This document shows positions 63,656-64,000 of a DNA stretch of 64,000 bases, piece by piece; positions within the stretch are counted from its first letter, which is position 1, and each line of letters begins with the position of its first letter. The notes below the pieces were generated by a model. That model did not search any database. It was not told the origin of the DNA and was given only the letters and a program-made list of their open reading frames with translations. Source of the DNA: Escherichia coli (lineage in GTDB: Bacteria > Pseudomonadota > Gammaproteobacteria > Enterobacterales > Enterobacteriaceae). The position numbers and the translations under genes are program-made. Where the stretch lies: the NCBI RefSeq assembly GCF_003334765.1, contig NZ_QOWT01000004.1. The stretch is one strand, 5' to 3'.

Positions 63656-64000
63656 ATGCTGTCGCGTCGGGGTCATCGGTTAAGTCGTTTTCGTAAAAAT
63701 AAACGCCGCCTGCGCGAGCGTTTGCGTCAGCGTATTTTTTTCAGAGATAAAGTGGTGCCGGAAGCAATGGAAAAACCAAGAGTACTCGTACTGACAGGGG
63801 CAGGAATTTCTGCGGAATCAGGTATTCGTACCTTTCGCGCCGCAGATGGCCTGTGGGAAGAACATCGGGTTGAAGATGTGGCAACGCCGGAAGGTTTCGA
63901 TCGCGATCCTGAACTGGTGCAAGCGTTTTATAACGCCCGTCGTCGACAGCTGCAGCAGCCAGAAATTCAGCCTAACGCCGCGCATCTTGCGCTGGCTAAA
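63656..64000 (+). CDS. cobB: NAD-dependent protein deacylase CobB (sirtuin), first ~115 codons; 3' end beyond the window
   Basis: Frame from ATG 63656: [81 protein letters not shown]..., sirtuin GAGIS motif; runs off the window edge. Confidence 0.88.

Follow-up and report, generated by a model that had tools for sequence, protein, structure and literature searches.

The cobB reading frame at the 3′ end of the DNA analysed here, a single stretch of 64 kb that we call the window, holds two in-frame ATG codons 111 nt apart. It raises the question of whether one gene specifies two proteins, and of what the basic segment between the two codons contributes to the longer one. A sequence-only reading had described an Arg/Lys-rich extension of 37 residues and an internal Met ahead of the sirtuin core, and translation of positions 63656–64000 reproduces this exactly. 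The two-start feature of cobB is real and was correctly read; it is also already known, and in that sense ordinary.

The cobB locus and its N-terminal extension

The 3′ end of the window carries the lolD-lolE-nagK-cobB region of E. coli. The features around the upstream start are:

62729–63640 (+), nagK, N-acetylglucosamine kinase (RefSeq annotation transferred from locus L001)
63646–63650 (+), Shine-Dalgarno (SD) element AGAGG of the upstream start, 5 nt before it (sequence)
63656–64000 (+), 5′ part of cobB (translation); the window closes at codon 115 of the gene
63656–63766 (+), 37-codon Arg/Lys-rich extension specific to the long form, CobB-L, opened by ATG1 at 63656–63658 (translation, composition)
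63767–64000 (+), start of the short form, CobB-S, and of the sirtuin catalytic core (translation; Pfam SIR2 from residue 48)

In RefSeq, cobB starts at 63656 and encodes a protein of 279 aa (WP_000952737.1, Sir2 family NAD+-dependent deacetylase), with a gap of 15 nt between the nagK stop codon and ATG1. The full-length protein, taken from L001, contains the SIR2 domain (Pfam PF02146) at residues 48–221 (E 5.8e-54), and the SIR2 nucleotide-binding motif lies at residues 48–57 of the window translation. CobB residues 39–279 are 100% identical to PDB 6rxj and also identical to 1s5p. Judged by these sequence matches, the gene is E. coli cobB, which encodes a Sir2-family NAD+-dependent protein deacylase. 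Every one of the 5426 complete E. coli genomes has a match to a 601-base stretch across the cobB start, and in 4125 the identity is 99% or higher.

An Rfam search returned no RNA family in the cobB region, and the minus-strand ORFs that overlie the cobB start (63741–63884 and 63818–63985) had no support. Elsewhere in the window, gathering-threshold Rfam matches were obtained for rne5, the RNase E 5′ UTR (28528–28864, −), the SraB sRNA (30725–30893, +) and the PyrC leader (6744–6793, −), all of which are expected for this part of the E. coli chromosome.

The cross-species set, with one genome per species, comprised 80 Enterobacterales loci and included Escherichia, Citrobacter, Salmonella, Enterobacter, Klebsiella, Kosakonia, Cedecea, Hafnia, Edwardsiella, Yersinia, Serratia, Rahnella, Pectobacterium, Brenneria, Pantoea, Erwinia and Mixta. 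The nagK gene lies directly 5′ of cobB in 66 of the 80 loci, usually at a distance of 2–19 nt; CobB-L should therefore also be readable from a bicistronic message.

The extension is made up of 12 Arg, 3 Lys, 1 His, 3 acidic and 13 hydrophobic residues, among others, and has a net charge of +12. Of all 37-residue segments in the window's 56 ORFs that are 150 aa or longer, 0.29% reached +12 and 0.018% reached 15 Arg plus Lys. Those reaching +12 include several out-of-frame, non-genic shadow ORFs, and the most basic 37-residue segments here are shadow ORFs. GC-rich DNA that is non-coding or read out of frame typically yields Arg-rich peptides. Such figures would suit a reading in which ATG1 is an annotation artefact, the real protein starts at Met38 and the Arg-rich peptide is read-through of a CGN-rich 5′ leader. 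The same can be said of the solved CobB structures, all of which come from constructs that begin at residue 39 or 40 and so lack the extension; it also lies outside the Pfam SIR2 domain.

Because Arg-rich peptides can come from non-coding CGN-rich DNA, coding status was assessed across species. An in-frame basic extension of 35–45 aa, opened by ATG, was present in all 80 Enterobacterales loci, and in all 80 a GAGG/GGAG-like purine motif stood 6–10 nt 5′ of the upstream ATG; mean anti-SD duplex energies at ATG1 ranged from −6.4 to −8.0 kcal/mol in these loci. In the 40 species with an extension of exactly 37 codons, the Nei-Gojobori dN/dS of the extension was 0.155, compared with 0.046 for codons 39–115 of the core, with synonymous sites near saturation (pS 0.60 and 0.66, respectively). 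The Arg positions of the extension are kept across species and their third bases are freely variable. R8, R22 and R24 are invariant in the 80 species, and L9, R11, R26, F28 and D31 are conserved in at least 90%; R17 is found in 71 of 80 and exceeds 90% solely in a 39-sequence subset. The conserved motif reads R8-L9-x-R11-F12-[RK]-[KR]-x-[KR]-R17...R22-[LF]-R24-Q-R26-I-F28.

Since frame, ATG and SD element are kept in every locus of the set, dN/dS is low and Arg residues persist despite variable third bases, the extension is a genuine, selected coding segment. Erwinia and Pantoea, moreover, are without any alternative start, and a 31.5-kDa form is seen on western blots. The reading of ATG1 as an annotation artefact is already refuted by the pattern of conservation, and we give it practically no chance of being correct.

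In a test for a mobile module, an HMM of the extension alone was searched against 1.84 billion representative proteins. It gave 41 matches, nearly all with the motif at the N-terminus. We examined 23 of these, leaving out 18 short ones, and all but three carry a CobB core, be it intact, frameshifted or part of a chimera; the exceptions are a repeat protein and two fragments, both short. Among the 23 examined, none shows the tail on another protein family, in a library that consists of 50%-identity representatives without taxonomy and is silent on the tail outside Enterobacterales.

Several database proteins that open with the CobB tail (P0007, P0010, P0013 and P0027) are assembly or frameshift chimeras; P0007 runs on into the reverse-strand ORF of 63818–63985 and P0027 into the C-terminus of LolE. 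These chimeric proteins are artefacts and represent no new domain architectures.

Promoters and the internal start

Long and short CobB isoforms, which the sequence-only reading had thought to recognize in this frame, have both been detected (PMC6209979, PMC12926920). In E. coli, CobB-L of 279 aa was detected alongside CobB-S of 242 aa, which starts from a Met codon 111 nt further on (Umehara et al. 2018, PMC6209979), and an anti-CobB antibody reveals both endogenous isoforms, at 31.5 and 26.7 kDa (2026 NAR paper, PMC12926920). Both papers, like the conservation across species, contradict a gene with one isoform and an unused upstream ATG. The further expectation of two promoters, one of them in nagK, agrees with published deletion constructs, which locate one promoter, that of CobB-L, within nagK (−417 to −30) and the other, that of CobB-S, somewhere in +1 to +111 of cobB (PMC6209979). 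The exact promoter hexamers are those that we infer from two matches:

63309–63337 (+), candidate sigma-70 promoter of the CobB-L mRNA, in nagK (TTGCGT-N17-TATCAT, score 9.84)
63710–63738 (+), weak sigma-70-like match in the extension (CTGCGC-N17-TATTTT, score 4.48)

A strict sigma-70 scan of 62600–64000 returned no site. In a looser weighted scan, the candidate in nagK was the best sigma-70-like match in 63200–63790; 8 sites on the + strand of the 64 kb score as high, and its position coincides with a BPROM prediction at −347 to −319 (PMC6209979). The match in the extension is at chance level (607 sites in the 64 kb score as well). It is the sole candidate for the CobB-S promoter and overlaps a BPROM call at +51 to +83, inside the interval +1 to +111 (PMC6209979). 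A strong consensus promoter for the internal transcript was not detected by the strict or the looser scan. An earlier reporter study, as it is related in PMC6209979, saw no promoter activity in −400 to +151 of cobB, so that the transcriptional part of the case in E. coli rests on one plasmid-based study.

Two further elements were noted upstream of the extension. Positions 62751–62767 (+), at the 5′ end of nagK, match exactly the sigma-54 binding site GTGGAACAAAAATTGCG. This site, 999 nt 5′ of cobB, is the intragenic IS12 defined by ChIP-seq (Bonocora et al. 2015, PMC4591121), and RpoN genomic SELEX likewise recovered it as a nagK-cobB promoter (PMC8743547); cobB may receive a third transcriptional input from it. 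The SD element and ATG1 lie inside a predicted hairpin at 63630–63682 (+) (AACCGAUU...AUCGGUU, −16.4 kcal/mol), which is no more stable than shuffled sequences (z −1.07) and gives no evidence of a regulatory role.

The internal start itself is composed of the following elements:

63743–63781 (+), internal translation-initiation region, with AGR codons, a weak SD-like element and ATG2
63743–63745 (+), AGA codon of Arg30 (sequence)
63749–63751 (+), codon 32, AAA in E. coli and AGR in most relatives
63760–63764 (+), weak SD-like GGAAG, with 2-nt spacing to ATG2
63767–63769 (+), ATG2 (Met38), second in-frame ATG, just before the sirtuin core
63779–63781 (+), AGA codon of Arg42 (sequence)

The SD element of ATG2 is poor, with a mean duplex energy of −4.3 kcal/mol over the species loci. 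This weakness, together with an internal promoter without convincing consensus, is what would be expected if CobB-L alone were translated, Met38 were an ordinary residue and the short band arose by proteolysis in a flexible linker. The linker (residues 28–41) is indeed predicted to be disordered, and hence protease-accessible, and 30 of the 80 species have no ATG at codon 38. The behavior of expression constructs argues against such an origin, however. Constructs with 30 nt of upstream sequence, or with the bare cobB-L ORF, gave CobB-S alone, and the cobB-S ORF without the first 111 nt gave nothing (PMC6209979); a promoter plus a start inside the gene are therefore indicated.

The distribution of the internal start codon is uneven. 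The codon aligned with Met38 is ATG in 50 of the 80 species (Enterobacteriaceae, Yersinia, Hafnia and Edwardsiella). It is GTG, CTG or TTG in 13 (two Citrobacter, Pectobacterium/Brenneria, Serratia, Rahnella and Rouxiella), and a non-start codon, either CAT/CAC (His) or ACA (Thr), in 17 (Pantoea, Erwinia, Mixta, Izhakiella and two others). A published statement that Erwinia encodes the long form only (PMC8603916) is reproduced by this survey.

Codon choice and RNA structure were compared across the same species. Arg codons 30, 32 and 42, which stand −8, −6 and +4 codons from ATG2, are AGA or AGG in 91 of 94 cases over 40 Enterobacteriaceae species, as against 12 of ∼690 at the 18 other Arg positions. 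Erwiniaceae, which are without the internal start, have CGN at both 30 and 42. The 70 nt around ATG2 in E. coli fold at −7.3 kcal/mol versus −12.1 for shuffled sequences (z +1.84), and the native region is matched or surpassed in stability by 196 of 200 shuffles. For species with ATG at codon 38, a 60-nt segment at ATG2 has a mean of −10.5 kcal/mol, compared with −10.3 at ATG1 and −16.7 in the gene body; where codon 38 is not a start codon, the same segment averages −15.9 kcal/mol, like the gene body. Weak structure at ATG2 is found in the 50 ATG species and is absent from the 17 non-start and the 13 GTG/TTG/CTG species.

Fixed AGR codons and relaxed RNA at ATG2, seen only in lineages with the ATG, are a further argument against proteolysis. 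The two signals are mostly the property of one clade and are confounded by phylogeny, and the outgroups with ATG38 (Yersinia, Hafnia and Edwardsiella) gave mixed results, so that the structure signal is stated for the ATG species taken together; the AGR codons and weak RNA structure support the internal start, short of independent proof. Long and short CobB isoforms of Salmonella enterica were reportedly described by Tucker and Escalante-Semerena in 2010, who are said to have mapped an internal transcription start in Salmonella, and this too speaks against a proteolytic origin. We consider it improbable that CobB-S is a breakdown product.

Departures from the common arrangement were seen in a few Enterobacteriaceae loci. 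Citrobacter youngae CCUG 30791 (L004) and Citrobacter sp. Cu233 (L006) have GTG at codon 38, where sister Citrobacter have ATG, and carry AGG, not AGA, at Arg42. In Klebsiella sp. BIGb0407 (L043) and an uncultured Cedecea (L051), codon 38 is ACA (Thr) in an extension that is otherwise Enterobacteriaceae-like, and an ATG stands four codons 5′ of codon 38 (..IMLEQT..). The latter two loci may have a shifted internal start or may have lost the short isoform.

Structure and ligands of the tail

Several functions have been assigned to the tail. Binding of c-di-GMP and dimerisation both depend on residues 1–37 (Xu et al., bioRxiv 10.1101/362293, later EMBO J), and R8, R17 and E21 are the c-di-GMP contacts, for which mutagenesis was reported (bioRxiv 10.1101/362293). 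Polyphosphate (polyP) and dsDNA are bound by CobB-L only, DNA with a KD of 6.42 µM, and polyP inhibits deacetylation (PMC12926920). In Salmonella, the N-terminal domain of CobB drives oligomerisation and Zn binding (PMC10965786), and CobB-L is Nα-acetylated by YiaC/NatB, which lowers its activity (PMC8603916, PMC12299546). The two isoforms, the promoter intervals and the binding of ligands by the tail are thus already known by experiment. The published ligands (c-di-GMP with a millimolar-range mutant Kd, DNA at 6.4 µM, polyP and Zn) may in part reflect non-specific electrostatics.

The conformation of the tail was modeled with AlphaFold2, using the 80-species alignment. The core was predicted with confidence (pTM 0.80), and the extension was predicted as a helix over residues 2–27, at low confidence (pLDDT 50–60), followed by a disordered linker at residues 28–41:

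63659–63736 (+), predicted single basic alpha-helix, codons 2–27, with R8, R17 and E21 (AlphaFold2)

The extension had been put forward, before any of this work, as a candidate nucleic-acid or membrane interaction segment. The nucleic-acid half of that proposal holds, given dsDNA binding by CobB-L only and c-di-GMP binding through residues 1–37; the membrane half is not supported. An amphipathic helix whose main task is to take CobB-L to the inner membrane could be imagined from the mixed composition (15 Arg plus Lys and 13 hydrophobic residues) and from hydrophobic residues at i, i+3/4/7 spacing (L9, F12, L19, L23 and I27). The hydrophobic moment of residues 2–29 at 100 degrees is 0.269, however, against a shuffle mean of 0.265 (sd 0.135), so that 45% of shuffles reach it, and basic residues occur on all sides of the predicted helix. 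We found no report of membrane association of CobB in the literature, where its known partners are soluble polyanions and c-di-GMP. The amphipathic membrane helix is rejected by the hydrophobic moment test, and a membrane-targeting tail has, in our estimate, only a very slight probability. With the helical geometry that we infer from the model, all-round charge fits polyanion or dinucleotide binding and would speak against a helix lying on a membrane surface.

In this respect the tail resembles the arginine-rich motif (ARM) peptides of lambda N, HIV Rev and Tat, which are likewise short, helical (predicted in the case of CobB), dominated by Arg, charged all round and polyanion-binding. No sequence homology to them was found; the CobB segment differs in being the N-terminal appendage of an enzyme and in also mediating oligomerisation, and its binding was shown for whole CobB-L versus CobB-S, with dsDNA and polyP (PMC12926920).

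R8, R17 and E21 are all present in the peptide encoded in the window, where R17-x-L19-x-E21 (an RxLxE tail, the reversed EXLXR) and R8 occupy the published positions (Xu et al., bioRxiv 10.1101/362293). Over the 80 species, however, position 21 is Glu in 23 and Gln in 41. As far as the alignment tells, conservation across Enterobacterales does not extend to the exact RxLxE motif, which is not general to the extension. Since E21 is mostly replaced by Gln, a conserved partner other than c-di-GMP might be supposed. The conserved role of the tail might then lie with a specific partner, be it polyP, a nucleic acid or a protein, held through R8, R22, R24, R26, F28 and D31, with c-di-GMP binding confined to a narrower, E. 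coli/Salmonella-level range. The invariance of R8, R22 and R24, the strong conservation of L9, R11, R26, F28 and D31 and the restriction of polyP and DNA binding to CobB-L would all accord with this. Against it, the two remaining c-di-GMP contacts, R8 and R17, are conserved, and a Gln or Asp in place of E21 might be able to contact the ligand as well. We hold a narrower role for c-di-GMP to be less likely than not.

Two proteins from one frame

The explanation that we favor, and regard as very probably correct, is that one cobB frame gives rise to two proteins, CobB-L from ATG1 and CobB-S from ATG2, with the tail as a regulatory and ligand-binding module. CobB-L (279 aa) would start at 63656, on the nagK-cobB message or on a transcript begun inside nagK, and CobB-S (242 aa) would start at 63767, on a transcript from a promoter within the first 111 nt of cobB. 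Both forms contain the complete catalytic core. In CobB-L, the tail would be an Arg-rich helix (residues 2–27, predicted) tied to the core by a flexible linker. Going by the published work, it binds polyanions (polyP and dsDNA) and c-di-GMP and mediates self-association, and in Salmonella YiaC/NatB acetylates its alpha-amino group. It is only in the long form that such interactions of the tail would lower or relocate activity. Of the components of this scheme, the sequence, the coding conservation and the marks of internal initiation come from the present analysis; the isoforms, the promoter intervals and the ligand binding come from the papers cited.

The closest parallel is the CobB-L/CobB-S system described for Salmonella enterica and E. 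coli (Umehara et al. 2018, PMC6209979). It involves the same gene, whose extension counts 37 residues, 12 of them Arg, and whose second Met lies just ahead of the core; nagK (ycfX) is the upstream neighbour, and promoters lie in nagK and in cobB. The Salmonella proteins are of 273 and 236 aa, compared with 279 and 242 aa in E. coli, a difference at the C-terminus; otherwise nothing of substance distinguishes the two. The closest solved eukaryotic relative of CobB is the class III sirtuin SIRT5 (E 1e-44). Eukaryotic sirtuins likewise vary their N-termini among isoforms, with effects on regulation or localisation (PMC8603916). Their isoforms are produced by splicing, and the N-terminus of SIRT5 is a cleaved mitochondrial presequence, whereas CobB uses alternative promoters and starts and retains its tail.

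The tail and the internal start also appear to differ in evolutionary range and in the marks of selection that they bear. The basic tail, with R8, R22 and R24 invariant plus L9, F12, F28 and D31, runs throughout the sampled Enterobacterales and is found on CobB only. One conceivable account, which we offer as a conjecture that is less likely right than wrong, is that the tail serves one conserved partner that is not c-di-GMP, and that the short isoform is a later addition in Enterobacteriaceae, kept by selection at the nucleotide level on the AGR codons at −8, −6 and +4 and on relaxed mRNA structure. If this were true, codon choice within the CobB-L coding sequence would set the ratio of CobB-L to CobB-S.

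What the present analysis adds to the published picture is modest. A survey of 80 species finds the tail on CobB only and in every Enterobacterales locus sampled; E21, a published contact of c-di-GMP, is poorly conserved; and in Enterobacteriaceae the internal start has a signature in codon usage and RNA structure. CobB is the sole sirtuin of E. coli and controls the acetylation of many proteins of metabolism, chemotaxis and replication, and the tail of CobB-L is a handle for its regulation by c-di-GMP, polyphosphate and N-terminal acetylation.
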